Shown: positions 13,565-55,199, counted from the first letter of the stretch. The stretch is 64,000 nucleotides of DNA from Amphiscolops sp. MND2022 (GCA_964187785.1 OZ076409.1:28770001-28834000), one strand, 5' to 3'. A program made the numbers and translations. The notes: generated from the sequence alone by a model not told the origin.

Positions 13565-13581
13565 TTATACTTAAATAAATA

Positions 13582-22806: not shown

Positions 22807-24010
22807 ACTTCACTTAGTAGCTTCCATAAACCTACGGCATTAATCTCACTCTCTAGAAAAGCGTGTATCAAATTTGAGCACTGCAACAATGACGTAACCC
22901 TAACGTATAGCCGGGAGTATAATGTCTTTCTTCCCTATGGTTGTTTTCCAATTTACTACTTTTATACTCCCAAGATGAATCCGTATCCATAAAATTCGAT
23001 GGCAAAATTTTTTCTAGAAATATGTTTTGAAGATATCAGAATATTTGACAGAAATAAAAACATTTTAAAATCTTCCAAAAATCTCCTCTCTAGATTTTCA
23101 GCTGTTTCATGCAAGCTTCAGACAACTTTCGAATGATTGTTGTCAAGATTTACATTTGAATAACATTAGCCAATGATGCTTGTATTTTTCAATAACCTAG
23201 AAGAATACATTTCCAATTTTAGTGACATTTGCTTACTTGAAGTTTTTTTTCGGAATAATCAGCGAAGCTTCAATTAACATCTACTTTACCTTTGATTAAC
23301 AGCTCCAATTTCACTTTTTTCCCAAGTTGAGACAGGCCGTGTCGATGACTTCGAACAAAGTTTTGCCTGAAACGCTTCTGTATGAACGTTATTGATACAG
23401 ACACGAAGCCATGCTTCGCAAACACTTGCAAAAAAATGGCGAAATTTTGAAGGGTAAACTAAATTAGCAATATTACATGGAGAACCAAGGGTTAAGGAGT
23501 CGGACTATTTTTCTACTAATTGATCATCTAAAAAAACAGCACAAACGACTGAATTCGTGTCCCGAAATGAGAATTGCTTCTTATCATCAAAGCTGCTTTT
23601 CAGATCGAAAGTCTAATTGTCATGCCAGCATGATGGAAATGTAATCTACTAAATATCTGTAATGTAAATATTATGTCTTATGTACTTAGATATGGGCAAT
23701 ATGATGTCATATAATAAGGGCCATGGTTGTGAGCAACCCTACGTTACTTGTACTTTAATCCCTTCCCCTTTTTGAGTGTGAGTTATATATATTTACTTAA
23801 TACTGAGCGCTCTAGTTCCGGTGTCCGCATAAATGATCTTGCCAGAATCTGGCCTTGAAAGTGCTATATTTCATAAATATTGGTTTGTCACGATAAGGGA
23901 GAGAAGTTTTCCGGTCAGACTGGACCGAAGAATATTGGAAGTAATGGAAAGTATAACTTCTACTAACTCCCCGCCTCAGAGTATGTAGTTGTGACAAATT
24001 CCATTAAATT

Positions 24011-24836
24011 CATCACAAATTCATCGTCGAAGTCGATGACGATTTTGACCTGATCAGAAATTTCACTTGGATCCATCCAGCGGATTCAACGGTGCTTTTA
24101 ACCAAAGTTCATCGCATTCCCATCCTTAAAGTTTGCGAATGAACAAAACATGGGACTTTAAACTGACTTTCATCATGAATCCATCAGCGGATTTTATGGG
24201 ACTTATTCTAGGAAAACTCATCTTTAATAAATCGTGATTATTTCGTTTAGTAATTCCTGAATGTGCTTCTCATTTCTAAAGAACAGTAGTTCATCCTTTA
24301 TTCATCGCGTTCACTAGTACAGAAGGGAAATGAGAAAGTACATCCTTAATTCATCCTAAAAAAGAGTGAAAGTGCTGGTTATCTGATTTGTTTAGTAAAC
24401 CCATCCTTAATTCATCTTGATTTCGTTTGTGCTGAAAATTAACCATTTTAGTGGGTGAGTTCATCCTAAACTCATCGCTAAATCGAATTGCTTTGGTATT
24501 CGGTGTTTTAATTGACAAGTTCATCCTAAACTCATCGCTAAAATTCTCCTGTACTAGAATTAGCGTTTATCGACTGAATTCATCCCGAATTCATCGTCAT
24601 TTGAATCTGTGCTGGAAATTGGCAAATTATGCATGGAGTTCATCCTTTTATCATCGTCAGTTTGAATTGTGTTGATTTCCGAACGAGAAAGACTACCATT
24701 CATCGCATTTTCATCCAGAGCAAAACTAGACTTGGAAATCAGCAAATATTCTTACAAGTTCATCGCATTTCCATCTTCAAGTTTTAAACCATTGATTTTG
24801 GCGCAGGAATCAGCGGAAAAACATCGTTTTCCCATC
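24011..24836 (-). repeat. Phased CATC-N7-CATC motif array in the LTR
   Basis: Motifs at 24011, 24110, 24171, 24292, 24341, 24402, 24462, 24522, 24581, 24641, 24701, 24761 and 24822; 60+/-1 bp period from 24341 on. Confidence 0.9.
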
Positions 24837-25027
24837 CCAAAGTGTGCTTTACCTTAAATTTGATTGAAATTAGTGCGTTATTGAATGATTTGAGTCCATT
24901 TTAGTTGCTAAAGAAACCATGATGTTATGTGCAGGCAATTGCGACATTGTAAATTGATGACTAAACACCATTAACACATGTAGATGTACCATGGTGCGTA
25001 GCCACTTTGCGGCAGTTCACAACACTG

Positions 25028-25146
25028 GTCACGTGACTTACCATTTTAGCACCAGCTGGTAACAGCCAATGAGAGAAGGTTGGTAAGAGATTTAGCGTCT
25101 TACCAACCGAAAAGACACGTGAACTGCTGTAATTTGGGCCGCCATT
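25028..25146 (+). promoter_or_regulatory. Candidate LTR promoter (E-boxes, CCAAT, YY1-like site)
   Basis: GTCACGTGAC 25028-25037, AGCCAATGAG with CCAAT at 25066, a second CACGTG near 25116, GCCGCCATT 25138-25146. Motif matches only. Confidence 0.45.
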
Positions 25147-25496
25147 AAATATTACTCAGCCCGAATTGCGACAAGCTACCGACCAGTTGGATATTTTAAC
25201 ACGCGAAAGTCAGAAAATACATCTCTATTTCATCGTCAGAAATTGAAGAATTTGAACTGAGTAATTTCCTTGGTACATCTACTACTGTGATGAAAATTGG
25301 ATGAACTCCTCCTGAATAACTTGCTAGTTCCCTTCTCCTTATCTAACTGCTTACTTATTTGTACGACTTCTTTCTAAAACATCTCAGTTTCAGATTAGTG
25401 AATTTGAGATTGAATATTCAGTTAAATCAGCAGAATACATTGAAACAACATCTCAGATAATTCAGTCTTCACTCATAATTCTTTTCTCTCGAATAC

Positions 25497-27002
25497 ATGA
25501 ACCCAGACCAAGGTACCGAACTTAGAAGCGGTAGAGTCATACATTCCTCGTCAGGAACATCTTCGCCAATAGATCCAGACATGGCTCAGTCATCCGCCAA
25601 TGACTCTGACAACAACGAAACTTCAGATATCTCGTCCCAGTTGTCTGAAATAAGAGAGAACTATGAGAAGAAGATAAATGAGTTATAAAGCGAATTTAGT
25701 CAACTGAAGAACTTATTAATGGCAGTTATTAGTAAAAATGACGAAAATAACTTACCTTCGGCATCGCAAAGTTCTTCAAAGCCGACCCACAGAGTCGGGT
25801 TCGACATGGTGACAGGAGTTACAGAAACCCGCTCCACCCGCCCGACATCCAGCTTCACAAACTTCAGGAGATACCAAGAAGACGACTCGGACGAAGAAGG
25901 TGAATCAACTCCTAGAAGCAATGAGGAACGACTACTCAATGCAATCGAGACGATCCCCCAACGAATCAAAAGCACCACCACCAACACGAAACTACTACAG
26001 ACACACGTCCCAAATTTCAGAGGCCAAAAAGACAAATTCGTGGAATTCGAGCACCTTCTCCTCAACCACCTTAGCCCGCTGGCCAACAAAATCACCGAAG
26101 AGAACAAACTCCACTTCTTTCAAAGCCTTTTGAGAGATGATGCAATAGAGTACTGGCAATCCATCCAGATAACGCCACTAACAACGCTGAAAGATGTGCT
26201 CGACCTCTTCAGGAAAGAATTCGCGAAAGAGGACCTTAAAGAAGTAGCTCGATACAAATGGGATCAAGCCCGTTACGATTCCACCACAGAAACATTCAGC
26301 GACTTCCTCAAAAACTTGAAAAAGATTGCGAAACAAGCATTTGGGGAAGAAGCGGATAAAATCATCAAAATGTTCTTGTTCGGTAAACTCCCAGTCGAAA
26401 TACAACAAGAACTTACGATGGCCAATAAGGAGGAGAGCTCACCAGAAGAAATCAAGACATACTTGATGAGAAAGTACCAGTACCAACAGTACGTTGCGCC
26501 ACCAACGGCAATTCAACCATTTAACGCGGTCACCTCCTCGGTCCCAACGACCAACACAACGATTAAACCAGCAACAACGACGACAACGCAACCGACAGAA
26601 CGAAAACGATTTGAGGGACAATGCTTCTACTGCGGAAAGACAGGTCACCGCAAAACGGAATGTCGCGCCCGACAACGTGACGACGCAAACAGCATTAAGA
26701 AAGAGGATGCAATTCCGATGAAGAAAGCAACCGACCCAGACAAACCGAAATACAATCCCAAGCTGGTTTGCCAGATTTGTGGATACACCGGCCACTCTGC
26801 AAGAGACTGCAGACGACGCATTCTCAAGGAAAGCAGCTCTGCATATGGAAAGATTCCATACACAACGAATTCACAGGACGACAACAAGGCTAGACGACAA
26901 GATTTAAAACGACAGCAAAAGCAGATGAATCCAATGCAAGCAATTACTGAGGACGACGAACAACTAAGCTACTCTGATGAAGACATTAACCAGGGTTTTT
27001 GA
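25497..27002 (+). pseudogene. gag: Gag with two CCHC zinc knuckles; starts inside the LTR; nonsense codon at 25686
   Basis: CFYCGKTGHRKTEC and CQICGYTGHSARDC. ORFs 25497-25688 and 25719-27002 share a frame; the 3' LTR has CAA where the 5' LTR has TAA. Confidence 0.92.
25807..25819 (+). other. Primer-binding site TGGTGACAGGAGT (probably tRNA-Leu)
   Basis: TGG immediately follows the LTR-terminal CA; resembles the TGGTGTCAGGAGT Leu-type PBS. Confidence 0.7.
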
Positions 27003-30000
27003 TTCAGCCACGATTTCCGCTCGCTAGAAATACAACGCGCGACAAACGACTTTCGACTCAACCGACTACACACAACCGTCCAATGAAGAAATGGCAGCCT
27101 TCACTGGACAAACGACCAAAAGCTGACGACGTCTATCAGCGAAGACTTTCCAACGATGAAAAAGCGATGGGAAATGCACGTCAACGCAACAGCAGCCGCT
27201 TTTCTCCACTCTCTGAAATCAACGATGAACAAACGATGAACTGGCACCAAAACACCATGAGGCAGGTGGACGATGCCAAAGAGATGGACACCAACCATCT
27301 AGACGACGACTCGACTTCATACTCAACAATCGACAAACGGCTTAGTATTAAAAAACATGCAAAACATAGTAGTATTAACATTTCAAAAGCTAACAAACAT
27401 GCAACTAAAACAGAAATTCACGTTCTTAGTCCCACTTTACATTTAAACAAGAAAGATAAAATGCTGTACGTCCCTCTTCAGTTTGATAAATACGAAAATC
27501 ATGCACTGTTAGACACAGGCGCAATTCAAAGCGCAATGTCTGAAGCAGAATTGTGGAAAATAACAACGGCTCATCCAGAAGCCATCCTTCAAGAACTCCC
27601 CCCTCCGAATTTCAAAATTCAAATAGCAAACGGGAACTTAGTCCCAGTGCGTAAGCAAGTCTTACATAGATTTTACGTTGCTGGAAAAGTCTTTGAAGAA
27701 ACGTTCCTAATCCTTCCAACAATGGGCACAATTTTAATTGGAATGTCATTCTTTGAAAAGTACTCAGTCAACTTAGACATAAAAAACCACCTTGTCCACT
27801 TCCCTAATCACATGATGTCCATGCAAGTTAGACAGCAAAAGATCAACAGATTCAAAACTGGTTTAATTGATTTGTGTTCCAGTACTAGAACAGTGATCCC
27901 TCCTCTCCATCAAGTGATGATACAGGTCCACAGTGACGCAGACATCTCACTTACATCTGGTACAGTTGAGGGCTCACCTGGATTCATGCGAAAGACGTGT
28001 TTGCTTGTTTCCCCAGCTTTGGTTGACCTAGATGAGGGCAAGACGACAATCCAAGTCACCAACCCGAACAACCACACGTTCACACTTGATGCCAACACCA
28101 CTCTGGCACACTTTCGCATACCGACACCACATCAGGCGGCAAACATCACACCCATGCCAGTCGAACACTTGAACCTGATCACCAAGTACCCAGATGAGGC
28201 GGAAGCGGTGATCAACCAACTGTTCGTGAACCCTGAAATGAAGTCAACTAAGTGGTACCCAACTCCCGAGACGTGCAGTGAGCCAGACAAACTCAACGCA
28301 ATTGAGCGACGAATCTATGATGAGATTCTGGCACTGCGAGAGCTCGAGAAGCTTGACCCGTCCCAATCCGATGAACAACGGATGAACTTCCTGAAGAACT
28401 TCAACTGGGACGACTCGCTTCTTACTCCGTCTCAACGGTTACAGGTAGAGGAGTTGCTGGTAAAGTACAACTCCATTTTTGCTAGACATCGTTTTGATAT
28501 TGGCATGAACACTGATTTTAAAGTTAAGCTAACACCCCAACATGAAGAACCTGTTTATTCACAAAGTCTCCCTACTCCGACAAATTTGAAGGACGATTTG
28601 CTCGTGGAGTTAGCCTTAATGCAAGAGTACGGGATCATAACTACTTTGCCTCATAGCAAATACTCATATCCGATATTCGCTCAACGTAAACCTAATGGTA
28701 AATTGAGGATTTTAGTTGACTTGAGAAGAATAAACCACTTGATCAAAAACGATTACGGTGAACACAACCATCCCGTAACAACAATTGCTGACGCTGCCCA
28801 ACACATGGCCGGGAAAAAGTACTTCTGTAAACTTGATTGTTCCCAGGCCTACCATTGCATCCCAATGGCCGATGAGCAGTCTGTCCAACTGTTATCGTTT
28901 AATTTTGGTTCTAGAACTTTTGCCTTTTTACGCCTAGCACAGGGCCTTAATCGTTCTTTGTCAGCATTCACAAGTGTAGTCCGTGAGTATTTGGACCCCC
29001 TGGTCAAAGCGGACCGATGTGCTCAATATGTTGATGACATCGGAATTGCAGCACACACCCCTGACGAACTGATTAATAACCTTGAACTTGTTTTTCAGCA
29101 GTTGAACAAAGCTGGTCTTAAGCATGAGTAAATGTGAATTTGGACAAAAGCAAATTGAGTACTTGGGAAAAACCATTTCTAGCACCGGTATTGCTCCCAT
29201 TGAGAAACGAGTAACTGACTATCTGACCAAATTGAAACCCCCAAACTCAGTGAAAGCGTTGCAACGTTATCTTGGTTTTGTAAACTTTTACAGGTCTTAT
29301 ATTCCCCGCCTAGCTGATAAAACTTGTTGTTTACAGGAGTTGATCAAGAAGGACGTCCCTTTCAAACTGAATCAACAACATAAAGATGCTATTTTTGAAA
29401 TCAATGAAAGTTTGTTAAAAGCAACAAAAGTGTCCCTGAAATTGCCATTACCTGATAAACAATTGGTAATCATGTGTGACGCCAGCGAACACGCTGCCGG
29501 CTATGTTTTGTTAATTGAGGATTATGCTGACCCGTCAGTCAAACAAACATACGCCCCTGTTGCATTTGGCTCTAAGAAATTTCAGGGCGGCCAGATGTCT
29601 CTAACAATGTATGCCAAAGAGTTTTTAGCTATGCACTTTGCCTTCGATGAATTTGGCCACATTTTGTGGGGTGCGAAAAAACCCATCATTGTTATGACTG
29701 ACAATAAGGCCTTGACTAGATTTTTTCAGGCGAAGCATATCCCGCCTTCACTTTGGAATTTTTGCGATCAAACCCTTCAGTTCAATTTTTTATTAGCACA
29801 TGTTCCAGGAGTTGAAAATCCCGCAGCGGATTACTTATCTCGGCTTGAGATTAGACCTGAAGACCGTGTACATTTAAATTTGACTGATATTATTCCAATT
29901 CACAGAATCGAGATCGACATCGCCTCCCGTACACCAAAACAGGAGGAAGACGAGCCTGATTACTTTCCCACGAGCGAACCACTCAGATGCAAACGCCAGA

Positions 30001-32087
30001 AGGATGTCAAAGAGATGAAATTGGCAACTGGCACTGACGTGGCTCATGACGATGGGAAAGGGATGAAGTTCACCAACTGTGAGAGAACAGCGGCCTCAGA
30101 TGACTTCGCGACTGACAACCATCTGACGTACCGCCTCACAGACGTGGACGAGCCGATTCAACTCTCGCAATTCATCCGTAAAGTATCATTATCACACCCG
30201 GTAATGAGTCAGGTTAGCCCCGCTGAGGGGATCGATCTAATTCAAGTCCAGAAAAATAACTGGGTTATTCAAAACATGATTAGATTTTTAGAAGGTACTG
30301 AAATTTTAAAACACCCAGTTAATATGCAAGATCAGTTTTTTCAAAAGTTGCACAAAAATCGAAAACGCCTACAAGTTGTAAACGGTGTCTTGTACAGACA
30401 GTTTTTTGATCACACGGGACTGGAGTCTCACAAGCAGTTAGTCGTTCCTGAAGACTGTATTTTGAAAATAATTAGGACTCTACATAACAGCCCGGTACAA
30501 GGACACCCTGGTTTAAAGGAAATGTTGTACGAACTTCGTAAAAGATATTACTCTCCTACCTTAGCCTGTAAAGTTCAAAAAGTCCTTGACGGATGTGAAA
30601 ACTGCATGAAATCTAAAAGTGTAAAAGAAACGCAACTACGTCCACCGTTACAAAAAATCTACGACCCGTGCGACGGACCAGAAGACCTGTTGGAAATAGA
30701 CATCGTTGGTCCACTCCCGGCGTCGAACGGTTTCACACACATTCTGACGGCTGTTGACGTTTTTTCACGCTACCTGTTCGCCGTTCCGCTGAAGAGACCT
30801 GATACACATTCCGTAGTCAGAGGATTACTGTCGATCTTCACGAAACACGCGTATGTGCCCAAGCACATTCTGACGGACAAGGGCACGGCGTTTACGGCTG
30901 AACTTCTGTCTGAAATCGCGAAAGCGGCTGAAATTCACATCTACCATGCCACGATAAAGCACGCACAGACAATAGGCATGGTAGAGAGAACGCACGCGAA
31001 ACTGAAAAAGATCCTTAAAATTAGTGTAAACGCAGACCGACCACAATGGGACCGCTATGTCGACATAGCAATCATGGCCCATAACACAACGTATCATGAT
31101 TCACTGAAATGTTCACCAACTGAAATTTTCCACGGAAGAACACCATACAACCCACTAGATCTGCAATTCCGAAACGCAAACAAACCGGCTGAAACAAAGT
31201 GCAAGGACGTGAACGAAATTCTAGACAAAATGAACTTCATCTTCAGAGACAATCTAGATAACATCATTTCCGCCTATCATAAGTACAAAACGTACTCTGA
31301 TAGAAAAGCACGAGCACAGCCACTGAAGGTGAATGAATTTGTGTTCCTACTAGATCCTAAGTACGACTCTCAGAGAAGCAAAGAAGAGTTTAAAACTTTC
31401 CATTGGAAAGGACCGTACAAGGTGATGAAAGTGCTATCCGATAGCAACTACATCATCCGCAAAGTAGGCACACACCAAACTCAGTGCGTACATCGCATGC
31501 GACTGAGATTGTTTAAACCGGAATTTCCGATTGATGACATCAACGTGTCCAAACATCTCTACCCAGACACTGAAAGGGTTGAAGACACGGACATTTTCGA
31601 CTCGAATATTCCGACGACTGACGAAGTAGATCAGAATGAGAATGACAATCTAGATCAAGACTTAGTCGAAGAAGAGCCTTCAGAAGAAATAATTCCGCAG
31701 GTACAAGAACAACACAGTCCACAAGTAATTCCACCAAAAATAACCACGAGAATAGATTATCAGCAAGTAGAAACTGACCACAACAACTTTAGACCACCTA
31801 CAGTTAGATTCGGAACACAAGAGGAAATTATTCTACCGCCCCCCCACGATGAAAGTAGGATAAAAGTACCTCTGAGAGACGAACAACACGAAAATCAGTC
31901 ACAACAGACAAACACGCAAACTGAAGATGAGGAAAGGATGAGTTCTAAACCGTCTAGAAACAATCAAAGTAGGTACAGGTTACGCGAGAACCCTACACCG
32001 AAAAAATATCCTGACTTCCTTATTCATGAGATTACATCAGCCAGAAACTCTCTGAGAAAGACCAACATAGTAAACGTAACGAGTTAG
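26999..32087 (+). pseudogene. pol: Pol (protease, RT, RNase H, integrase with GPY/F motif); one frameshift near 29123
   Basis: LLDTGA; YVDD; CDAS...KEFLA...TDNKAL...AADYLSR; H..GH..CENC; IDIVG, TDKG, VERTH; WKGPY. ORFs 26999-29131 and 29124-32087 break inside RT. Confidence 0.95.
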
Positions 32088-32115
32088 CCAAGAAAAACAA
32101 CATTTCAAAACACAC

Positions 32116-32650
32116 GATGTGTTAAAGATGAACAATTCACAAAAACGAGTCAATTACATGCAATTTCAATTTAAAATGAACATGAAGATGTAAAATGGAT
32201 GAAAAGTTACTAAAAATCACATGAAAAACGCATCAAAATAAAACACGATGTAAAACGGATGAAAAACGACCAAAAACCCAGAAAAAAACAAAACACAAAA
32301 TTTGAGATGAAAAAAGGATGAAATCACATGAAAATTTATCCCAGACACACGAGAGATGAAAAAGTGATGAACTCAGTCAAAAATTCGACCAATCAACATG
32401 CAATATTTACTAGCGATGCATTTGAGATGGAAAATACCATCAGAATGCGAACGCACTCACGTTCATGCTATCATAATACTCTAGCTCGGCTAGAGGATGA
32501 AATAGCGATGAACTCGATCCAATTATTCAGAAATTACATGAAATCAATTAACGAGATGAATTTGTGATGGACACTACCATCAAATCGTTACCGAATTTAT
32601 CGTTAGCCTGACACAATACTCTAGCTTCGCTGGAGGATGTCGAAACGATG
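32116..32650 (+). repeat. GATG-N7-GATG array downstream of pol
   Basis: Nine motifs at 32116, 32187, 32247, 32306, 32355, 32415, 32496, 32555 and 32636. Confidence 0.9.
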
Positions 32651-34043
32651 AATTTAGTCTAAATGGAAATTCGAAAATATTAAATGACTTACCAAAACCT
32701 CCTTGTGATGGGAAACACCATCAACATAACATCACAATAAATCAGCTAATTCTCAAACAACATGTAACTCCACGAAACGATAAAAAACAGCCGACTTTAT
32801 TTCGAATCATGCAAATAGAATTATGCGACACAAAAATGAAATGATCAATACATGTACGGTTCAAAGACCTGCCAAATCAATGACGTCACGAAAGAAATTG
32901 ACAATTCCAAACTACATGCAATACAAATGAGCAACACACGGAAATATACATGTACCGTTTAAAAATGAACGAGATAATATATGCAATTCACACCAAAGCC
33001 ATCCAAACCTAGACGAATAAAAATGAAACGAACAATCGAAAATACATGAAGCCTACTAACTTACATGCAAAATATAAGAACTGACGAAACACCCACAAAA
33101 CGAATAAAGGAGTGAGCACCCCCCAGTAAACATCAGTTCATAACAAACAAAATACCCCTATCGAAAAGCCAAAAACATTCCTTCGTGCTGGCTGGCATTT
33201 CTCTGAAAAGTGTGCTGGTTAGTTGAGGCGGGGAGCACACAACCATATTCGGATGAAGCTTGCTGCGTTGGTTATCCAGCGGCTAGTGGATTCTCAGTTA
33301 GTTTTGTAGGGGCTTTGTGACGACAAAGCCCTGTCCAAATGAACGAAAATAAAAACACCAAATTAAAATACATGAAACTAACACCGGACATATAACAACA
33401 TGTCGATAATGGGGCAACCCATTTAAAGGAATACATTATGAAAACACGCAAACATGAAACCACACAATATCACAAAACTTAATAATTCGAAACATGCAAA
33501 GCCGTAGATGTCAATCACCTTGATTGATCAGATTAAATGTCAAATGGACAAACCCAGTTCGACGTCTGATGACAAACAATTGACCGTAAAAATAACATGA
33601 AGACTATATATAGCTCAAAACTGAGAGATTTCATTCATCTGAATGGAGCGGAGCAGCTCCACTCACCCAGCTTTGGATTGGTACCTCAAGTACCTTGCAC
33701 GCCTACGGGGTTCCAATACCATTGCTGAGTGAACATCTCTTCGACTGCCACGCAAGCGGCAGTCACAAGAGTCCGAAAATTGATTCATGCAATAATGTTC
33801 AAACTATGACAAATCCGAAACGCAACGAAAATGAGTATAACACATGTACACTAAATTTCATGCAATTTCAACAACCTAACAAACGATCAACACCATATGA
33901 CACTAAAATACATGAAGAAAACACTCCCAAAATACCGCAAAATTGATAAAATACCCTCATCTACCATGAAAAAAGCAACTCTCGATCACGTTATAGTAAA
34001 ATAAACACGAAAAACACGCAAGATAAATATTTTCCAAAATCAC

Positions 34044-34422
34044 GATGAAAAGAAGATGAACTATGCAGCAAAATGAGCAAAATTCGACAAGTCAAAACTT
34101 GCGATGCAAAAACGATGGACTACAGCAAATAACTCGCCAAAATGATAAAATGAAAACGCAAGATGAAAAAACGATGAACTTTGCAGAAAAACACATGAAA
34201 CAACATGCAATGATTTCCACACAACGAAAGATGTAAAAAAGATGAGAAAACAGTTTTCGCGACGTCGCTCGGTCGACTGAGGAAAACAAGATGAAAATGA
34301 GATGAGACATCACAATGAAACACTGATGAATTAGCCACACCTACACGAGATGTAATAACGATGAACACCGTAATAAAAGTTATCTAAAACGCGCGAAAAT
34401 AAAAAGTGATGAGAAAGCGATG
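34044..34422 (+). repeat. GATG-N7-GATG array downstream of the antisense gene
   Basis: Seven motifs at 34044, 34103, 34162, 34230, 34290, 34349 and 34408 (~59-68 bp spacing). Confidence 0.9.
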
Positions 34423-34685
34423 AAAACTATCCGCAAATCTAACCTATCCCTATCCTCACCTAAAAATGTCTCAAGAGAAAAACAAATTTCGGGTGCCAAA
34501 CACTAAATTTGTATATATCTACGCTACCGAACTTTCCGACGTAGCATCTGTTGTTCTCCCCCCCCCTGTAAATTCGTTTAATTGGTCACCCATTTGCTAG
34601 ATACAATACTATAACATACAGTAATATAAAATAACATGAAAGATACAAACAGCTTCAAACAATAGTAATAAACAGCAAGTCAATT

Positions 34686-37600
34686 CTAAACCTCAGGGCT
34701 AGCTGCGCGCTCTCCAGCAGCTGTAAATCCGATCGCATCGTACAACGACTGACGGTATTCTTCATCCGCGACTACTCCTACATCATCCCACAGCATCTCT
34801 TCTGTCAAATCGGCTAAAGCTGTGAAATGACTCCGTAACCTCCTCCAGTAACGGCCCACTCACAGTTTCGAACTGTCTGATGGAATGCGTCCTCAAATAA
34901 CTTAGAATACTTGAGCAAACACTTGTCGTGACATCACTGCTCAACCCTCCCACGCTGACGCAACTGATACCTGCTGGGAATACAGGTGTCTCACCCAGAC
35001 ACATCAAGAAACGGAAGAAGCGTTGACACGATGAACTCTCACATGCCCGCAAAATGTCCACTGCTGAACTTGCACTGTCTACGGACATATCAACTGCATT
35101 CTGCCTGAAGTTGGTCACGAATGAGACGAAGCTCCCATCCATCCGTCTCTTCTCAGCGAGTCCTATCCTCCCCAGATCCAGGAGCAATCCAGTAAATTGT
35201 TCAGCTTCATTTCGTAACACGTCAATTTCACCACGCAACAAAAGAGCAGGGCAACCCACACTCAAATGATATGTCACTTCTTCTTTCATTCCGGGAGCAG
35301 CTAGAATGTCTTCAACCACTACAAACATGAAGCTTTGCACCATCGCCAAGTGTTCATCAATTACGGCAGCTTCTGCAACTTGCCCTAAGTAGGGACCAAA
35401 TTCATCCCTCATGATTCGCAACTTGGCATGTGACACAGTCAAATTGTCCACGTCCACTTCCAAGCAAGCCCGCACCTCGGTCACACTAGGCAGGTCATCG
35501 TCGTCTATCAGCTTGACTAAGATTGCGTGCACAAAACACGCACTCTCGTACGCCCAATGGAAACTCCTCGATGGACAACTGCTGAAGCTCCAGCGATACG
35601 AATCGACGACTGAAAACAACAAAATTTAATGCAAAAAAAACATAGTCAAGTCACACGCTCTTTACTCGATTCCCGAACCAAATATCTTTTATTAAATTAA
35701 GACACTGTAAATAACGAAACGATATGCACCAAGAAAACAAAAAAACATACATACGTGCACGAAAGACACTAGCTAAGGCCTGCAGACGGAAAGGGATAGC
35801 ACGATCCCCACACAGCACAAAGTCCAAAGACTCAATGATGCCGGATCCACTAGGCACTCTCAACAGATTCGAGACCTCTGCCCAATTCTCAGACAACTCA
35901 GCCAACACGTCCGGTACGTCCCAGAGGGTTACCTCTCCGTCTAACACGGACTAAAACAAACAAGAATTTATAAAAATAAAAAAATTCCTAAATTACACAC
36001 GATACAACCACGAAAAGCATCACCCCCAAAAAATCGACAAATCAACAGCAGTGAAAAATAATCGAGAAAATAGGAAATAGTTACCTGCAAGAGCTTTGGA
36101 CGAGCTAAAAAGATTGGGTCCTGTACGAATTCTTTTAGCCTTGATTGCAAATGGTTCAATATCGTATGTACATCTGTCCCGCCCATCACACGAATGCTCG
36201 CATCCACCAGACGCTTGTTTAGCTCGGTAAGTTTTAACGACACAAGTGAGACTGTCCTTGGTCCAGAGCGGCTGACCAACACTCTTTCCAGCCCAGACAA
36301 CAGTCGACAATTGAGGCCAACAGGTGCCAATTGCCCCACAGCGCAACACAACATATTGACAGCCCACGAGACCACTCGCTGCTCCCACTCTTGTCCATAA
36401 GCAAATGAAAAGACCACAAAGTTCGCAGGCCCTTCCGAGGTACATACATTCAGCGTGCCCACCACTCTGTCAGCCACTAATGTGACACCGAAACTACTGT
36501 ATTCTGTTTCGGACCATGAACCAATTACTCGTCTCATCACAAACGGCCAGAGTCCAAGTAGAACAACGCTCAATCATCGTTTTAATTTCTCATATAGTTA
36601 CCTACTCACCACTCGATTAACACACACCCCAACCTTGTAGTTTTTAACAAAAAATAAAAATTTTCATACAAATACCCCAAAATTATCGGAAGTTTCACAT
36701 GTAACATACAAATAACAATACATGCAACATGTAATTATTTCATGCATCCGGAAAAGATTCATAATAACCAGAACGTCGGATTCTCGACAAGTCGCGCCAA
36801 ACATGATAGCATGCTGCGAATTGGAGGCAACCATCAGGTCCCAAAGATGTCGCACACTTGCAAAATTACAGTCCCGATAGATCGCATCAATCACTAGACA
36901 CACGAACAATCGAAAACTGTCAGTGTGGTCGTCATCCTCTGCGACTCGCCTTGTGCCCCACACTGAACCATCACTCGCCTCGATCTGCAGTGCCTCCAGA
37001 ACAGTCACATCTGGACACGTCTCAATCAACGGCACTGACTCACCACTTAGTGCGGCACCACACACGTCTGCCTCGGCTTGGGACATCAGTGTCCCATCTC
37101 GTCTGCGCAGCGGTAGGCCCCGTCGCAATCGCGTCAGACAGTCCAGCCGGTGGTGTCTGACTCCCCGGCAGTGTTCAAAGAAGGTTGTTATCCCGCGGCT
37201 ACCGATCTTGACATCTTGCCTGCAGAGTAGACATCTCGCGTACGAATCGCGCGTAAGGTGATCCTTCGGGAAGCCGAGCGCCAATCCACAATAAGCATGG
37301 TTAAACCACGCTGACTTGAGAATTTTCCTTCCCGATATCAAAAGAACAACGAAAAATGTTAACCCCATCCTCTACACATCCTAGAATACCGAAAAATAGA
37401 AAATCAACTGAACATTTCAAAAAAAAACAAACAACTCACCCGGAGTGATGAAAACATGATGTAAAATAATATTTTCATTGGAAATATAAGCGAAAAACGA
37501 AGAAAAAACGAAAAGATGAAAAAGAGATGTGTTTACAAGCCACCAGGACAGAAAATTGAAACTTTAAAAGACGAAAGCCTCGAACGATGAAAAAGAGATG

Positions 37601-39425
37601 TATAGAACAACGTTGAACCAAAATTGAGATATTTTAGAGCGAAAATGACTTAACGATGAAAAAGAGATGTAAACTGAAAAGAAAACGACAAAAATGGCTA
37701 AAGACCGAGCAAGAAAATTTTAAGGATGTAAAAGAGATGGAAACTCCTAAAAAAATGATCAGAAAAGAAAACGCTATACTCAAGACTTTTAAGGATGAGA
37801 AAGTGATGGGAAATGAAAAACTGCAGAAAATCATATGAAAAACAGAAAACGATGGAAAATAGATGGAAAAGAAGAAAGACGTGAAAACACTGGTGAAAGT
37901 GGAAGTGAAAAGAAATGAATAAAAGTTACCGATCAAATACTTCACAGAGTTAAAGATGTTTAAGTAACCTGGCAAGCGAGACGCAATGGGCTCGTCGTCG
38001 GAATCCACGAGGCTGGGTCCCATGGGAGATGTCTCAGAAGACACAGGAACCAGACCAGGAACAGCACCTTCTGGAGCAGGCTCTGCAGACAGAGGATCAC
38101 CAGCAGGGACATTCTCGACTGCCTCTAGTAGGGTACCAGTGCTGTCGGCTGACGGCACGTCAGACTGCTCGACGTCAGCCTCCAAAGTTCCAGAGACGCT
38201 AGCAGCTGGCGAAGAAGGAGCAACCGGAAGGGTGTCCACGGGAGGATCATATTCTGTGGATGTCTCGCCAGTTTCCACAACGGCCTGAACAGACTGATCA
38301 GCAACAGCCACGCAGGCATCTACCGCCACATCCACAGGAGTGACGACGGCACTGACTCCTGTCTCTACGGTGATACGAACAAGAGGAGGAGGACTTTGAG
38401 TTGTTGATTCACGGTCCAGAAATCGCTGAAAGCTTGGCGAGAGCACAGACACTGGGGCACGTGCCACAGGGGAGCTGATCGCGCCCAGAGACAAGTTCTG
38501 GAGGAACGAGGACATCTCCAGGGAAGAAGGCCCTCCTTGGGTAGCAGCGTCAATCTGTGTTGCACCAAAGTCGCTCGTTCCTATACCCACGGAGTACGTA
38601 ATAGGGCGAGGCCTTGGGGCATGGATAGGAGTCGGGCCTGAAAGAAGAAAACAGAAATCAGACGACGACAGATGATGAAGAGAGTGCGCGTACGCCGCGC
38701 GAAGAAAGAAAACAGGAAACGAAGTCACCAAAAATTTCACCCTCAAAATGGAATTCGGAAAACGGATTAGCCACGAAAGGACGGTGAATGTCCATGACGC
38801 ATCCCAAATTCATCTTAAAAAATGAATTTTATAGGTAATCGACCGTGAAGGGCACTACATGCAGATGAGATGTTTACATCGGAATTACATCGGAGTGTCC
38901 GGACGGTACCTTAGTACAGACGGAAAATGTGAAAAGGAGTCAACTCACTGTACTGCTGGATGCTATCTCGTAGCATGTCCCGCATGTGACGATCATACCA
39001 CTCGAAGGTGATGCTACCCAGGGAGGCATGCCAAGGATAGTGATCTAAACATCAAACGGAAAGAGTCAACGTCTGAAGGGACCAGAGATGAGAAATGAAG
39101 AGATTGTGGACTGAATTGAAGATCTGGAGGGACAGAACTTACACTGCGGAAGATACGGGACATTGGGAGCCTGACCAAACGGTTGGTCAGGTTGAAGTTC
39201 AGGAGCTGCTGCTTGAGCTTCGGGAGCCTCTTGGGGCGGCACGTTCTGCAAAGTGGTCAGCTCAGAGACTACACCGACAGATTGAACTGAGTCCGCTAAA
39301 AGGCCAAGACGCGTTTTCAACACCTAATTGTTCCCCGACCCGTTTGTGAAAGAAAAGAAAATGGTGCACTTACTTTCTGTAGCTTCGGTCTCTGGAAGAG
39401 AATGAACGAAATGGATGTCAGACAT
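34686..39425 (-). pseudogene. Antisense multi-exon accessory gene (~1000 aa) with a Pro/Ser-rich region and a BED-like zinc finger; a few disabling mutations in this copy
   Basis: GC-rich minus-strand coding blocks bounded by GT/AG sites with matching phases: ~39323-39143, 39072-38949, 38637-37969, 37331-36769, ~36570-36085, 35950-35755 and 35609-34686. Finger CLLCRQDVKIGSRGITTFFEHCRGVRH. The start exon and the 36769-36570 junction are uncertain. Confidence 0.72.
37447..37865 (+). repeat. GATG-N7-GATG array inside the predicted intron of the antisense gene
   Basis: Seven motifs at 37447, 37515, 37586, 37655, 37725, 37794 and 37851 (~70 bp spacing). Confidence 0.9.
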
Positions 39426-39926
39426 CACTGTAATTTGCAAAGCAATCTGAAAAGGAACGGAAGAGAGTGAGGAAGGAACGAAATCGAAGAATCTGGTGAC
39501 AAGAATTTGGTCAGTAATTAAATGGCCTGATCAACCATGATTGCGGGATACAAATTCGCGGAAAAATCTCAAAGAGCGCGGATGCAGCTTGAGTGCCAGG
39601 ACAGACCAAATACTTGAAATTCAGAACATGGAAAATCGATGAAAAACTCTCCGATTTCAATGACTGCCTACACTTTTCTTCCTAAATCAACCAACTTAAC
39701 AGTTTTCTCTGAAAATGGATCACCCCCCAGAATTTGACTACAAAAGCTTCAAGTATTTGATTTTGATGACAGCTGCCAGTCTCAGATCAATACCGACGAA
39801 GTTGAGCGGAAACGCGCAGAGGGAATCGTGGCGATTTTCAAACCGACTTGACGGAAGATGATTCAAGGATGAGAATATTTGTTGACAACCGGTTGGATTT
39901 CTTTCAGTTCAGAAAATTCAGTTTTC

Positions 39927-40047
39927 AACCAATCAGAATTAGCAGTGATTGCTATGGCAACAGGCCATCTCTTTCTCATCGCTGAGAGTTCAGACAGCGG
40001 AAGTAGCTTCAACAGTTACTATGGCAACGACTCATCTCTTTCTCATC
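39927..40047. promoter_or_regulatory. Candidate promoter of the antisense gene: two RFX X-box matches and a CCAAT box
   Basis: ATTGCTATGGCAAC 39948-39961 and GTTACTATGGCAAC 40015-40028, each followed by CATC-N7-CATC; AACCAATCAG near 39927. Confidence 0.5.
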
Positions 40048-40558
40048 ACGGAAGCTGATAGCAAAGCAACGGCGCCAGTCGTCTGCTAAATCAACATCGA
40101 TGCCTCGCTGTGTAAACAATTCATCGTTCATTCATCCCCGACTCGCTGCCAATTTGTCAATGAAGCTAGTCGAATTGTTTATTCAGTGTAGGCGTTTTGG
40201 AGGGAATCTTTTCTCCGAGAAATCAGCTTCTACCGAAAATAACCAGCCGAAACTCCCATCAAAAGCATGACAGCCAATAAAATGCAGATCAGCGGACATT
40301 CGATAGACCAAGAACTAGAGTTGCCGCGTCGATAAAATTTAACCGAAATCACCCAGAATGAAACCAGATATGACGATTGCCGAAAGTCCTCTTCTCAAAG
40401 AAGATTTGCATAGGACGGAACAAACGAAGGACATGCCAATTCAGAACTAACGAAGGCCATTTTCTCCCCAACCAAACGAAGGTAGCAGTCGAAGCCAACG
40501 CCGAGACAACCATTCTCTGCACATTTGGCCCCTGCACTCTCAATCCAAATCCCGCCCC

Positions 40559-40564
40559 GGGGAG
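40559..40564 (+). other. Short polypurine tract GGGGAG before the 3' LTR
   Basis: Directly precedes TGTCATG at 40565. Confidence 0.65.
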
Positions 40565-42753
40565 TGTCATGCCAGCATGATGGAAATGTAATCTACTAAA
40601 TATCTGTAATGTAAATATTATGTCTTATGTACTTAGATATGGGCAATATGATGTCATATAATAAGGGCCATGGTTGTGAGCAACCCTACGTTACTTGTAC
40701 TTTAATCCCTTCCCCTTTTTGAGTGTGAGTTATATATATTTACTTAATACTGAGCGCTCTAGTTCCGGTGTCCGCATAAATGATCTTGCCAGAATCTGGC
40801 CTTGAAAGTGCTATATTTCATAAATATTGGTTTGTCACGATAAGGGAGAGAAGTTTTCCGGTCAGACTGGACCGAAGAATATTGGAAGTAATGGAAAGTA
40901 TAACTTCTACTAACTCCCCGCCTCAGAGTATGTAGTTGTGACAAATTCCATTAAATTCATCACAAATTCATCGTCGAAGTCGATGACGATTTTGACCTGA
41001 TCAGAAATTTCACTTGGATCCATCCAGCGGATTCAACGGTGCTTTTAACCAAAGTTCATCGCAATCCCATCCTTAAAGTTTGTGAATGAACAAAACATGG
41101 GACTTTAAACTGACTTTCATCATGAATCCATCAGCGGATTTTATGGGACTTATTCTAGTAAAACTCATCTTTAATTCATCGTGATTATTTCGTTTAGTAA
41201 TTCCTGAATGTGCTTCTCATTTCTAAAGAACAGTAGTTCATCCTTTATTCATCGCGTTCACTAGTACAGAAGGGAAATGAGAAAGTACATCCTTAATTCA
41301 TCCTAAAAAAGAGTGAAAGTGCTGGTTATCTGATTTGTTTAGTAAACCCATCCTTAATTCATCTTGATTTCGTTTGTGCTGAAAATTAACCATTTTAGTG
41401 GGTGAGTTCATCCTAAACTCATCGCTAAATCGAATTGCTTTGGTATTCGGTGTTTTAATTGACAAGTTCATCCTAAACTCATCGCTAAAATTCTCCTGTA
41501 CTAGAATTAGCGTTTATCGACTGAATTCATCCCGAATTCATCGTAATTTGAATCTGTGCTGGAAATTGGCAAATTATGCATGGAGTTCATCCTTTTATCA
41601 TCGTCAGTTTGAATTGTGTTGATTTCCGAACGAGAAAGACTACCATTCATCGCATTTTCATCCAGAGCAAAACTAGACTTGGAAATCAGCAAATATTCTT
41701 ACAAGTTCATCGCATTTCCATCTTCAAGTTTTAAACCATTGATTTTGGCGCTAGAATCAGCGGAAAAACATCGTTTTCCCATCCCAAAGTGTGCTTTACC
41801 TTAAATTTGATTGAAATTAGTGCGTTATTGAATGATTTGAGTCCATTTTAGTTGCTAAAGAAACCATGATGTTATGTGCAGGCAATTGCGACATTGTAAA
41901 TTGATGACTAAACACCATTAACACATGTAGATGTACCATGGTGCGTAGCCACTTTGCGGCAGTTCACAACACTGGTCACGTGACTTACCATTTTAGCACC
42001 AGCTGGTAACAGCCAATGAGAGAAGGTTGGTAAGAGATTTAGCGTCTTACCAACCGAAAAGACACGTGAACTGCTGTAATTTGGGCCGCCATTAAATGTT
42101 ACTCAGCCCGAATTGCGACAAGCTACCGACCAGTTGGATATTTTAACACGCGAAAGTCAGAAAATACATCTCTATTTCATCGTCAGAAATTGAAGAATTT
42201 GAACTGAGTAATTTCCTTGGTACATCTACTACTGTGATGAAAATTGGATGAACTCCTCCTGAATAACTTGCTAGTTCCCTTCTCCTTATCTAACTGCTTA
42301 CTTATTTGTACGACTTCTTTCTAAAACATCTCAGTTTCAGATTAGTGAATTTGAGATTGAATATTCAGTTAAATCAGCAAAATACATTGAAACAACATCT
42401 CAGATAATTCAGTCTTCACTCATAATTCTTTTCTCTCGAATACATGAACCCAGACCAAGGTACCGAACTTAGAAGCGGTAGAGTCATACATTCCTCGTCA
42501 GGAACATCTTCGCCAATAGATCCAGACATGGCTCAGTCATCCGCCAATGACTCTGACAACAACGAAACTTCAGATATCTCGTCCCAGTTGTCTGAAATAA
42601 GAGAGAACTATGAGAAGAAGATAAATGAGTTACAAAGCGAATTTAGTCAACTGAAGAACTTATTAATGGCAGTTATTAGTAAAAATGACGAAAATAACTT
42701 ACCTTCGGCATCGCAAAGTTCTTCAAAGCCGACCCACAGAGTCGGGTTCGACA
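40565..42753 (+). repeat. 3' LTR (2189 bp), retaining the open gag N-terminus from ATG 42444
   Basis: Direct repeat of 23618-25806, followed by the TSD CTAAT. Confidence 0.96.
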
Positions 42754-42960
42754 CTAATTTAGAAAATATGTCGCATACTCAAAGAAAAACATTCTCATGA
42801 ATCGCATTCGGTATCTTTCACTACAAGCTGCCGCTAGACTGCTTGGATGCAGCACGGCTTGTAAAAATATTACGCATACGCACCGGTTCGAACGCGAAAC
42901 GTCTGAGCTGTAAAGCAAGAATCTTACCACTAGACCATGTAAGCCTGAACTGGAGATACA

Positions 42961-43507
42961 GGCACCACGACAATTCGTACACACGATATTTCGTACAATA
43001 GCCAAGAACCCGACATTTCGTACACGGACAATTGGTACAAAAATGAAACCGGACATTTCGTACAAAAGACATTTCGTACAAAATTAAATTGAACAGATTT
43101 GCAGAATAGGTCTCAAACAACAGAATTACTAGCTTTTAGTGCTGTTACAGCCAAAATGTATGAAACTTGATTCAATTAAAGAGGCTAGCATATATGTTGT
43201 ATGGCTCGGTCACTTCGCTCCCTTCGCCAATTAGCAACATTGAGGCATGGCCAAATGGCACGTCGCTCCACTTCGCTTCGCTCCTGCATTTAGGGCACTA
43301 GGGGTATGTGAACATAGCTGACTACGTTATAATAATAAGTTGTATAATATAAATTGCACGAAATGTCGGGTTTCATTTTTGTACGAAATGTCTGGTTTCA
43401 TTTTTGTACGAAATGTCTGGTTTTGCTTTTGTACGAAATGTCTGGTTTTGGTTTTTGTACGAGATATCGTGTGTACGATATGTCGTGTGTACGAACTGTC
43501 GTGCCCC
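42961..43507. mobile_element. Mutator-like MITE with TTTCGTACA tandem subterminal repeats
   Basis: Inverted arms CACGACAATTCGTACACACG / CGTGTGTACGAACTGTCGTG; flanks TGGAGATACA and TGGAAATACA (~10-bp TSD, one mismatch). Confidence 0.72.
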
Positions 43508-43515: not shown

Positions 43516-44279
43516 CAGTAGCGTTCTAAAATATCGAAACCTCATTGCTTAAAAGGGCCAAATTCAAAACCAAATATCTCGTAAACTGTCTCGATTACAA
43601 AAATTTGCCATCTACAAAAGTTTCTTAGAATTTTATCTAGTTTACAAAAATGTTTGTTTGAGAATTCTGCGACAAAAATTGCAAAAGTTAGAAATTGTAA
43701 ATTTCGACGATATTTTATCAAATTTGCACTTTTTCCCGATTTTCACAAAGTTGAGAAAATGTTTTTGAAATATTTTCAGTCGATCATATGCCCCCAAATC
43801 TCCTGAGGATGTCGGTACAATTTGATTGAACTATTTTATTCGATGTCCAATAAAAATCATCAAATTTTCTAAATACAATTTTTATAGCCTATCTTAAAAC
43901 ATGTGTTGCAGTGTTCATCGACACAAAATGAAGTACATTTTTTCCGATTTCAAAGTAATTTTCGGTCAGCACAATTCAATGAGTTCAGGAGATTGTAAGG
44001 AATCTCTGAATATCTTTAATTTCCAAAATAAAGTTGAATTTAAGCATCTCAAATATCAAGAAAAAACCCAAAATTCAATTAAATTTCCCCAAAATTGGCT
44101 ATTTCCAACTTTCTTAATATGGGTCGTAAAATTTTCAAACAAACATTTTTGTAAACTAGATAAAAATCCGAGAAACTTTTGGAGCTGGCAACTTTTTGCA
44201 TTCGAGACAGTTTACGAGATATGTGGGTTTGAAGTTTGCCATTTTAATCAATGGAGTTGCGATATTTTGAACGCTACTG
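43516..44279. mobile_element. Tc1/mariner-like MITE
   Basis: TA|CAGTAGCGTTC...GAACGCTACTG|TA, ~155-bp imperfect TIRs, no transposase. Confidence 0.82.
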
Positions 44280-44416
44280 TAGTGAACAAAGTAGAAATCA
44301 GAAGACGCACCCTCAAAATTATTTTTTTCATGCATGCATGAAGGCGGATGATCATTTCCAAAACGATCATTCGACAGAAAAAAAACTTTTTCATTGCTGT
44401 TGTCTGTTATCAATTC

Positions 44417-47400
44417 TGGCGTAGTTCAGTTTTTGATGTTTTGCTCTTTTCTCTGCTGTTCGTTTTCTTTGCGCTTCTTGGTTTATCCAAAGTTACCCAA
44501 GTACTCAAGACGAACGAACCAAAGATCAATGACGACAACCAAGAATAACATTGCTACCGTACCTCGAAGACAATGGACTTGACGGTAAAAAACTGTACAC
44601 CCCTAAAGAATGAACCGAGCGACTACGACACTACATATAACGAAACTACAACATCGATATAAAACCGGCCTTATCCGGGGAAACAACTCATTCAACTATT
44701 CAAAGACTATTACATGCCAAAACGAAACACATACCACAGCCGAGTAAACTTCTTCTGGGCAAAACGAGAAGAAAATGAGACATCGGAAGAACACTGGCGA
44801 AAGTTAGTATCCCTAGAAAGGAAGTGCGAATTCAAAGACATCAAACAAAAAGATCTATTAATGTCAAAATTCATTAACAGCATAACCGACAAGAAATTAC
44901 GGGAAAAAGTCATTCGCGAAAAGACACTAAACCTGAAAACCACAATGGATCTGGTAACCCAAGACAGTTATGAGAGAAGACATAAACAATCAACAATACC
45001 ACCAGCACTTGCGAAAGAAACAGAAATAAAAGAAGAACCAATACAAAAACACAACCGCGAAACAAACAAAACTACCGGGAAAATGCCGAAACAGCAACGA
45101 AGAATAACAACTGTGGATTCTACGGACAACAAAACTGGTCACCATCACAATAATGCCCGGCAAAAACGGTAGAATGTAACAACTGCCACAAAATGGGACA
45201 CTTTGCGAGAGTGTGCCGCAGCAAAACCGACAATACAAGAAAACAAAAACTTAACTACCTCGAAGAAACATACAACGAAGAGGAAGAAAGTGAACCGGGA
45301 GAAATACAACAAATCACGCAAATCAACAGGGTACTACCAGACGAAAATGACAACTATGGGATAAAATTGAAAATCATCGGCAAATACCAGAACTTCACCA
45401 TCGTCACCGGTTCTCCGGTCACAATAATGCCAAAAAACCCATAACTTTACGACCAAAAAGATATCGAGCCGTTAAAAAAAAGACATCAAGACGTAAACAA
45501 AAACGAAGTTAAATTCCTCGGGAAAATATGGGCCGATATCAAATACAATGGGAAAACAACAAATTTACCAATCCTGATCACACAAAGAAGCGACATCACA
45601 CCATTATTAGGTGTGAATTGGCTGAAGCAACTACCAATCACCATCATAATATCCAATTGGACGAATCTATCAACCAATCGAAAGCCATTCACGCGAAATT
45701 TAGCAAATTATTCGAAGCAAACCATACAACCAAAAACATAGAAATGAAATTCCGAATAAATCCAGGATGTTACCCAATCCTACAAAAAGCCACCACGATA
45801 CCGTACCTTTTTCAAAAAGATCTGAAAAACGAACTAGACCGAGTAATAAAATCCGGACATCCCAAACGACTAGAAACCGTCAAAAAAGAATGTTTTGTAT
45901 CACTCGTAGTAATTACGGTGAAATAAGACAAGACAGTGAAAATCGCATTGGATGCCCGAAAACTCAACGACAGCTGTGTGAAGAAAAGACCACACATGCC
46001 AAACATATATGGATTACTGAGCCAAATACCTGCCGAATCATCCAAGAATGACCGTGACCCAATCTGGATTACCGTAGTAGATCTCGACTATGCATACGGA
46101 CAGATGAAACTGGCACTGGAAACCAGTAAACACTGCAATTTCGCGATAACAGGCGAAAAAATTAACGGAAACTTCCGATTCCTAAACGGGTTTTATGGCC
46201 CTGCTGATATACCAACGATTTTCCAACAGAAAATAGACAGAATATTGAGCCATCAAACAAATTATAGTCGTCACACGTGGAACAAAAGAAGAACACACAC
46301 GAAAATGTTTTTCGGTACTTACAGAACTGGAAAACGAAGGATACAGAGCAAGCAAAAAATCAAAGTTTTACCAAAAAAACAATATGGCTTGGACATGCAA
46401 TATCGCAAGACGGAATCAGACCAAACAAAGAAAAAACCGATGTGATAAGTAAGTTAGAACCACCAACGAACACCAAAACACTGAAGTCTTTTCTTGGAGC
46501 CATACAAAATTTTGCAAAATTTATACCAAACCTGTCTGAGAAAACAGACAACATGAAACAACTACTCAAGAAAGGGAAAAAATGGGAATGGACCGACCGA
46601 AATTCAGACTTCAACAAAAAAAAGTAAGAACTAACAACACTACCCTGCCTGGCACACTTCAACGATAATAAGGATAACATCGTCACTACAGATGCGTGCA
46701 AAACCGGTTTAGGAGTAGCACTATGGCAAAGGCAAGGAAGTGGAGAATTTGAACCAATAGCCTTTGCAAGTCGCTACCTAAACAACGCCAAAAAGAAACA
46801 TTCCATCGGAGAATTAGAATTATTAGCCGTTGTTTGGGGTTTAGAAAGAATCCGATTTCACTTATACGGTAAGCAAGTCCAACTCTTTTTGGACCATCAA
46901 GCACTGGAACTACTTCTAAAACGAAACATGATGAACAAACAATACAATGCACGGCTAATACGATGGCTAGACAGCCTGAATCACTTTGACATCTCTTTAA
47001 AACATACTGCCGGCGAAGAAAATAATATTACGGACTTCATTAGCCGAAATCTTACCGAGAATCCAGAACCGGAAAAAAACTACGAAGAGGAATTTGTTAT
47101 CAACGCCATCGCGCAACTAGCAACAGCAAGCGCCCGAATAGGACGGATTTTCGACCAGTGAAACGGCGCGGATACGGCCAATGAACCAAACATGAATGAT
47201 ACGCGCTCGCTAATTGATACGCTAGGCTATCAAACAAACAAGCCATTTTAATAAAAATCACCGCATACAACAGTACTCACTTGAAACCGACCATTCAAAA
47301 AAGAATAACAAAGAAAATAACGCCGTTTCTTCCGAACTGACGGACAGTAGGGCCACCACTGGGCTGCAGATAACGATATTATGGCCATCGTAAACAAAAG

Positions 47401-52800: not shown

Positions 52801-53010
52801 CTGCCACATTTCATAACCTGAGTTACTTGTTACTTTAAAAAGAATTGTTTTTTAAATACTATTTACATACAAACTCTAATTGATTTCTGTCGCATTTGTG
52901 TTTACGTGATTTCTAACCATACCATTCGTTTGATAGACCAGGATAAAGATCAGTTGGAAAAGATACTTACTCCCCAACACTGTTTTAATAGAAACTCTGA
53001 GACGTTAACA

Positions 53011-55150: not shown

Positions 55151-55199
55151 CGGACAAAAGGGCAATCATGCTTGATACGTTGACTGTGAAAAGTGGATC

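Follow-up and report, generated by a model that had tools for sequence, protein, structure and literature searches.

An antisense gene with predicted introns and a probable hAT-type transposase ancestry, carried by a Ty3/gypsy retrotransposon

We analysed a stretch of 64,000 nucleotides of Amphiscolops sp. MND2022 (OZ076409.1:28770001-28834000, the 64-kb window) from a genome of 1.07 Gb. It contains a Ty3/gypsy retrotransposon of 19 kb (23618-42753), which carries a gene on the opposite strand between pol and the 3′ long terminal repeat (LTR). The gene consists of eight exons and seven predicted introns, is very probably spliced, and has a second half, exons 5-8, that probably originates from a hAT-type transposase. 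Judging from the sequence, we assign a probability of about 45% to the reading in which the encoded protein binds the GATG-core repeat arrays of its own element and, through its acidic N-terminal half, activates the element or protects it from silencing.

The gene model was derived by aligning the window copy to 34 relatives; of the 35 fetched, L032 was left out as one of its anchors was missing. The model comprises 3153 core columns, that is, 1050 codons and a stop. All of its parts lie on the minus strand:

Exon 1, 39374..39425, minus strand: begins at a conserved ATG.
Exon 2, 39143..39295, minus strand.
Exon 3, 38949..39044, minus strand: 96 nt, with a corrected acceptor; the most conserved exon.
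Exon 4, 37969..38637, minus strand: acidic low-complexity region rich in Pro, Ser, Thr and Ala.
Intron 4, 37332..37968, minus strand: GATG-core array of about 70-nt period; separates two independently shuffled gene halves.
Exon 5, 36769..37331, minus strand: BED-like C2H2 zinc finger at about 37150-37233; acceptor non-canonical in the window copy.
Exon 6, 36085..36570, minus strand: predicted helix, three strands and helix; acceptor deleted in the window copy.
Exon 7, 35755..35950, minus strand.
Exon 8, 34686..35609, minus strand: helical, with a weak match to the second half of a hAT-type transposase (C-terminal).

An earlier note on this DNA had described five junctions. Four of them (38949/38637, 37969/37331, 36085/35950 and 35755/35609) were recovered with the phases it had assigned, as were its five donors (GTAAGT, GTGAGT, GTTACT, GTAACT and GTATGT) and the GG that replaces AG at the 37331 acceptor of the window copy. 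The remaining junction, from 39143 to an acceptor at 39072, is wrong: the resulting exon has three stops and exits in phase 2, and the 39072 AG is missing in the divergent copies L026 and L028-L031. The acceptor at 39044 reads AG in 34 of 35 aligned copies and yields an open exon of 96 nt; because exon 3 begins there, a TAG near 39015 that had been taken for a lesion falls out of frame and is none. Two introns had been overlooked, 39373-39296 and 36768-36571, the latter because its acceptor falls within 27 nt that are deleted from the window copy. A frameshift announced near 34800 was located near 34825, as an 8-nt deletion relative to the other copies. The window-copy gene carries three lesions, namely the altered acceptor of intron 4, the lost acceptor of intron 5 (the 27-nt deletion) and this 8-nt deletion, and the gag and pol of the same copy are disrupted as well. 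Two other arrangements were rejected: reading through intron 4 as a coding tail meets its first stop after 1 to 166 codons, depending on the copy, and a start codon just upstream of exon 5 is contradicted by frame-breaking indels in L023, L024 and L033. About 11 bases just inside intron 4 (37950-37968) are common to clades A and B of the family, next to poorly conserved protein, and are possibly a splicing or polyadenylation element.

For a sample independent of the gene, 20 elements were chosen by integrase alone, taken from all along a list of 140 integrase matches. In the 16 complete copies among them, 224 of 224 splice dinucleotides are canonical, and every exon is open with GT/AG ends in 7 of the 35 aligned copies. 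Introns 4-7 are retained in clades B and C. The weak GTT donors interchange with GTAAGT or GTGAGT at identical positions across copies, and clade B has GTAAAC in the position of the doubtful intron-4 donor. In-frame stops immediately 3′ of this donor are found in 3 of 54 copies.

Purifying selection, whose absence the earlier note had named as a ground for refutation, was detected in every exon. Ten copy pairs have ratios of nonsynonymous to synonymous substitution rates (dN/dS) of 0.09-0.26 when all exons are taken together, and the per-exon values stay below 0.41 wherever they can be computed. Shared indels tell a similar story: six in exons are in-frame against three that are not, these three being adjacent and summing to multiples of three, whereas in introns 17 are in-frame and 137 are not. 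In 20 young copies, single-copy variants have a ratio of nonsynonymous to synonymous polymorphism (pN/pS) of 0.82, compared with 0.20 among variants that are shared; copies therefore decay after insertion while the replicating lineages keep the protein, and selection operates during replication of the element. The view that this is a stable accessory gene holds up well, since it is antisense, intron-bearing and constrained throughout. Introns antisense to the genomic RNA are not spliced from it and hence survive reverse transcription. We infer that the gene requires its own antisense transcript. As had been proposed, it is not env: this identity is ruled out by the orientation antisense to pol and by the lack of a consistent hydrophobic or transmembrane stretch, a 19-residue hydropathy of 1.8 being reached in 0 of 32 exon 5, 2 of 25 exon 7, 3 of 34 exon 8 and 12 of 30 exon 6 sequences.

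The first four exons encode an acidic, Pro/Ser-rich region without match in a Pfam scan. In exon 5, the C2H2 finger ligands are near-invariant among 32 sequences. The best Pfam match of this finger is zf-BED, found for 8 of 23 members with a best expectation value (E) of 0.012, below the cut-off. A hAT motif led to a hAT-like group of this genome other than the classical frames, and to its full-length member P0101 (DUF4371); hAT families are annotated among the Atlas neighbours of P0101 from rank 3 onwards. Aligned to P0101 with hhalign, the finger gave a probability of 83 and an E of 8.7e-6. Against full-length P0101, exons 5 and 8 score 19.9 and 8.5 bits, with 0 of 500 shuffles as good in each case, and their profiles also match hAT-like frames of the genome (E 2.6e-5 and 8.5e-6, respectively, among 847 fragments). 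Profile-profile alignment places exon 5 at positions 9-176 of P0101, exon 6 at 194-241 and exon 8 at 461-714, collinear with the gene (E 7e-5, 0.04 and 4e-4; 0 of 30 column shuffles each), and profiles made from clade C only give the same order. The match is clear for the finger and weak for exons 6 and 8; with deeper profiles, exon 8 aligns to the helical insertion and C-terminal region with E 1.5e-4 to 4e-3 (0 of 500 shuffles).

Beyond the finger, the resemblance to a transposase is weak. Exon 6 matches the start of the RNase H-like core only weakly (E 0.02-0.05, 29 of 500 shuffles as good), and exon 7 finds no match on the transposase, either in the P0101 shuffle test or by profile-profile alignment. 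A shallower exon 8 profile, from clades A and B, is not significant against P0101 alone (E 0.13), and single exon-8 sequences stay below a Z of 4. Sixteen classical hAT frames of this genome are unmatched beyond a faint finger hit, and the comparison was not blind, the hAT group having been found through an already suspected motif. Pfam scans detected neither PF05699 in exon 8 nor TRP28 (PF04195), a genome search for DUF4371 gave no signal anywhere with controls equally silent, and searches of PDB sequences with the exon alignments returned nothing below E 0.9. The predicted folds are uninformative: the exon 6 model has a predicted local distance difference test score (pLDDT) of 47 and a best Z of 4.8, and the exon 8 model a pLDDT of 57, a best Z of 6.3 and no Foldseek match at E 0.001. 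The gene could instead be a captured host or viral gene that resembles a transposase in its zinc finger type only, as the strong match of the finger alone, the unmatched exon 7 and the uninformative folds would allow. We regard this as unlikely, because exons 6 and 8 fall in the expected transposase order with both three-clade and clade-C-only profiles, and no other family was matched in the Pfam or PDB sequence searches.

If exons 5-8 are of hAT origin, the cutting activity was likely lost. No invariant acid occupies the columns aligned to the catalytic Asp-Asp-Glu, the column mapping being taken from weak alignments, and no terminal inverted repeats were found around the gene in the window copy; the gene is therefore not an active transposon, and a nested active hAT element was rejected. 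That it is a still independent hAT transposon, or neutral baggage, is extremely improbable: the protein is hAT-like and DNA transposons normally contain introns, but besides the missing acid and repeats, the gene sits at the same site and in the same direction in 20 of 20, 10 of 10 (clade B) and 9 of 10 (clade C) sampled copies of the three clades and is under strong purifying selection.

The arrays to which the protein might bind are distributed over the element, which is organized as follows:

5′ LTR, 23618..25806, plus strand: 2189 nt, TG...CA ends; TTCATC array of about 60-nt period; includes ~100 codons from the start of the gag frame.
gag, 25689..27002, plus strand: zinc knuckles; frame starts within the LTR; stop at 25686 in the window copy.
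pol, 26990..32087, plus strand: protease, reverse transcriptase (RT), RNase H and integrase; frameshifted near 29120 in the window copy.
Non-coding spacer, 32088..34685, plus strand: two GATGAA arrays (32127-32647 and 34044-34419) and a conserved GC-rich island (33175-33345).
Upstream region of the antisense gene, 39426..40564, minus strand: predicted promoter and 5′ untranslated region; plus-strand polypurine tract at the LTR end.
3′ LTR, 40565..42753, plus strand: 99.5% identical to the 5′ LTR, 11 mismatches.

The density of TTCATC/GATGAA reaches 8.7 motifs per kb in the LTR and 8.1 in the spacer, compared with 0.87 outside the element, and arrays of 60-70-nt period are present in the LTR, the spacer and intron 4. 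On the genomic strand, they read GATGAA in the spacer and intron 4 and TTCATC in the LTR. All seven clade A spacers tested carry GATGAA arrays, and clade B has a related GATG-core motif; the fingers of these two clades are similar. The sampled clade C windows have no GATG-core arrays, and the clade C finger differs. In hAT transposases, short subterminal repeats are the binding sites of the BED finger; together with the arrays, this leads us to favour a self-regulator. A retrotransposon lineage would have captured the transposase gene of a hAT-type DNA transposon, which then would have lost catalysis and become a DNA-binding regulator. Its exon-5 finger would bind the GATG-core arrays within its own element, with the dead transposase body as a scaffold and the acidic N-terminal half as an activator or anti-silencing shield, and binding to the arrays would promote transcription of the element.

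Other points count against array binding and activation. The hAT relatives in the genome repeat a different motif, and within clade A there are many alleles without correspondingly different arrays. The link between finger and array is seen across three related clades and may come from shared ancestry alone. The benefit of an activator working in trans is shared among elements, so that strong selection acting lineage by lineage is less easily accounted for. The strand orientation of the arrays also fits an RNA signal, and the gene could encode an RNA-level accessory factor, acting in Rev-like export, packaging or small-RNA protection, whose finger binds the genomic RNA. The faint U1/jaz-type Pfam matches of fingers from the hAT relatives (E 0.6-0.9) and the conserved island at 33175-33345, which folds better than shuffles (z -2.2), agree with such a role. 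We nevertheless consider it quite unlikely, given that the orientation flip between LTR and spacer suits double-stranded DNA, that zf-BED is the best match of the finger and that the likely ancestor is DNA-binding. Alternatively, the protein could be a cofactor of integration or of the pre-integration complex, binding the LTR arrays in the complementary DNA (cDNA) and guiding nuclear import or target choice. A transposase ancestry, with its end binding and synapsis, and the arrays in both LTRs would match this role, and acting on its own cDNA would account for the strong per-lineage selection. The spacer and intron-4 arrays are far from the ends, however, large parts of the gene are missing in 4 of 20 elements and the acidic N-terminal half is left unaccounted for, so that this role appears distinctly improbable.

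The gene exists in many alleles. Among the integrase-picked elements, the integrase cores are 98-99% identical and exon 3 has a median amino acid identity of 94%, while exon 8 is only 36-59% identical to the window copy; 17 of these copies fall into 10 exon-8 classes at an 80% amino acid cut-off, and 39 module combinations occur in 76 copies. The pairwise identities of exons 5, 6 and 8 covary (Spearman 0.80-0.88), whereas those of exon 8 are uncorrelated with exon 4 (-0.01) and with the integrase tail (0.01). Exons 1-4 and 5-8 are therefore shuffled independently, with exchange across intron 4, and we infer that template switching is the simplest way to do so. In 20 copies picked for a divergent exon 8, the synonymous sites of exons 5-8 are saturated, compared with an integrase synonymous divergence (pS) of 0.04-0.34. 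The finger is conserved while the protein body diverges. This diversity would be expected from allele-specific exclusion or conflict: like alleles would form oligomers that poison or repress elements with unlike ones, or that evade a host factor, so that rare alleles are favoured and many persist. No partner gene was seen, and homogenization of pol among many old families by template switching gives the same pattern without selection on alleles; we consider the conflict model rather unlikely. A combined picture, of a domesticated transposase with introns stored in antisense and diverged alleles shuffled onto a near-identical gag-pol under frequency-dependent selection, can be put forward tentatively.

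A search with exon 8 listed 147 scored matches among 1789 candidates. In 20 divergent ones, the gene is antisense to the integrase in every case and all eight exons are present in 19. In the integrase-picked sample, part of the gene is found in 20 of 20 elements, all eight exons in 16 and an apparently open gene in 11; half of the gene is missing in L171, L177, L187 and L185, three of which retain only exons 1-4 and one only exon 8. Relative to the window copy, the RT core is 96% identical in clade B and 82-87% in clade C, and exon 5 is 47% and 30% identical, respectively. Clade C has a different N-terminal half upstream of the shared exons 5-8 (L113:6677-7910), and a frame of 433 codons without Pfam match (L038:2778-4079) stands at the expected pol site beside a clade B gene. 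A profile search yielded 97 relatives, ten of which were looked up and are unnamed ENA proteins. For two of these, identity to their matches in this genome reaches 48% and 34% at most, which makes it probable that the family also occurs in other species. An exon 5 scan of JGI metagenomes gave 39 pattern matches, none confirmed; an Atlas search with exon 5 gave no usable match, and word-based searches found no long homologues of exon 8 or of L121.

The assignment of the element to Ty3/gypsy is supported by the paired TG...CA LTRs, a 5-bp target duplication (CTAAT) on both sides, the primer site and the polypurine tract, and the domain order of pol is that of Ty3/gypsy. The 2.2-kb LTR reaches about 100 codons into the gag frame (25479-25806), which places the primer-binding site within gag coding sequence. 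A faint dUTPase-like match (E 0.061) lies between protease and RT at about 27870-28110. The distance from pol to the 3′ LTR is 8.5 kb. Within it, the non-coding GC-rich island at 33175-33345 shows 96% identity across 45 of 46 divergent copies, terminates in a 10-bp hairpin and is a candidate packaging or dimerization signal; an Rfam scan of 32000-43000 found no match. A second island at 33600-33800, preceded by a TATA-like run on the plus strand and present in 23 of 46 copies, is possibly an internal sense promoter directed into the antisense gene. The region 39426..40564 is conserved at 80-94% identity in 37-45 of 46 divergent copies. On the minus strand, an acceptor-like site at 39446, just upstream of the ATG, and conserved donor-like sites at 39613, 40352 and 40451 suggest additional non-coding 5′ exons. 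Elsewhere in the window are Maverick/Polinton-like remains (8056-19104), with a fragment of a type B DNA polymerase, an integrase core and an A32-type ATPase in two frames. This Maverick-like element, the hAT transposons of the genome and the style of the introns point to an animal host. A 98-nt unit occurs four times at 19380-20091, with a spacing of about 155 nt, and two more degraded gypsy-type elements lie beyond the 3′ LTR (43898-56852), recognizable by pieces of RNase H, of an integrase zinc finger and of a knuckle.

Through this gene, an antisense accessory open reading frame (ORF) can be traced to a different class of transposon as its likely source; the gene also indicates that a fully intron-structured gene can persist through an RNA intermediate over long times. 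The finger and the GATG arrays form a candidate protein-target pair through which a retrotransposon, in what is probably an animal, may activate itself, and the natural allele series could be used to study conflict between elements or between element and host. A multi-intron, transposase-derived antisense gene in an LTR element was not found by full-text searches of a literature collection that omits most subscription papers and Repbase entries, nor in the available passages of PMC6431247, PMC4402516 and PMC12477816; an earlier annotation of such a gene is possible.

Antisense ORFs between pol and LTR are known from plants and fungi, and in the available passages of PMC7264820 and PMC11963269 their origin and function are stated to be unknown; examples are plant Retand/Tat elements (Grande gene23, RIRE2, TRP28 ORFs) and fungal Boty. 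The former, a 2020 review, describes these ORFs as being without similarity to other transposons and spliced antisense transcripts as worth seeking, and the accessible part of the latter leaves introns unmentioned. The comparison with Tat/Retand drawn in the earlier note is apt in that antisense extra ORFs exist there, but it is an analogy only, given the likely animal host and the missing TRP28 match: Retand/Tat and Boty have simple ORFs, whereas the present gene has seven introns, shuffled alleles and a traceable hAT-type source. Accessory proteins encoded beside tandem short motifs are described for VANDAL transposons (VANC, PMC5735166) and for Spm (TnpA, reportedly transposase-derived; excerpts of bioRxiv 10.64898/2026.08.24.746577), and the clade A and B elements likewise repeat short motifs in their non-coding regions. 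VANC and TnpA belong to plant DNA transposons and were shown experimentally, whereas the present gene is carried by a retrotransposon, probably comes from a donor of another transposon class and encodes a protein whose binding is predicted from the sequence. Like hAT transposases and their ZBED, FAM200 and ZNF862 derivatives, the protein has a BED-like finger, followed in the expected order by regions with a weak match to the core and to the helical C-terminal part. Unlike hAT proteins, it has an additional acidic N-terminal half of 330 residues and no conserved catalytic acids, and unlike catalytically dead host derivatives, it is kept by the retrotransposon and not by the host. In the genomic hAT relative L140, the stretch aligned to exons 5, 6 and 7 is free of introns, in contrast to the present gene. 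Penelope-like elements also retain introns through an RNA intermediate, but they are of a non-LTR class, and it is their core gene that contains the introns rather than an accessory gene in antisense. HBZ, a small bZIP protein with few exons, is not transposase-like. In the deltaretrovirus HTLV-1, however, HBZ (mentioned in PMC11963269) is likewise the product of an antisense accessory gene in the 3′ part and a nuclear regulator.

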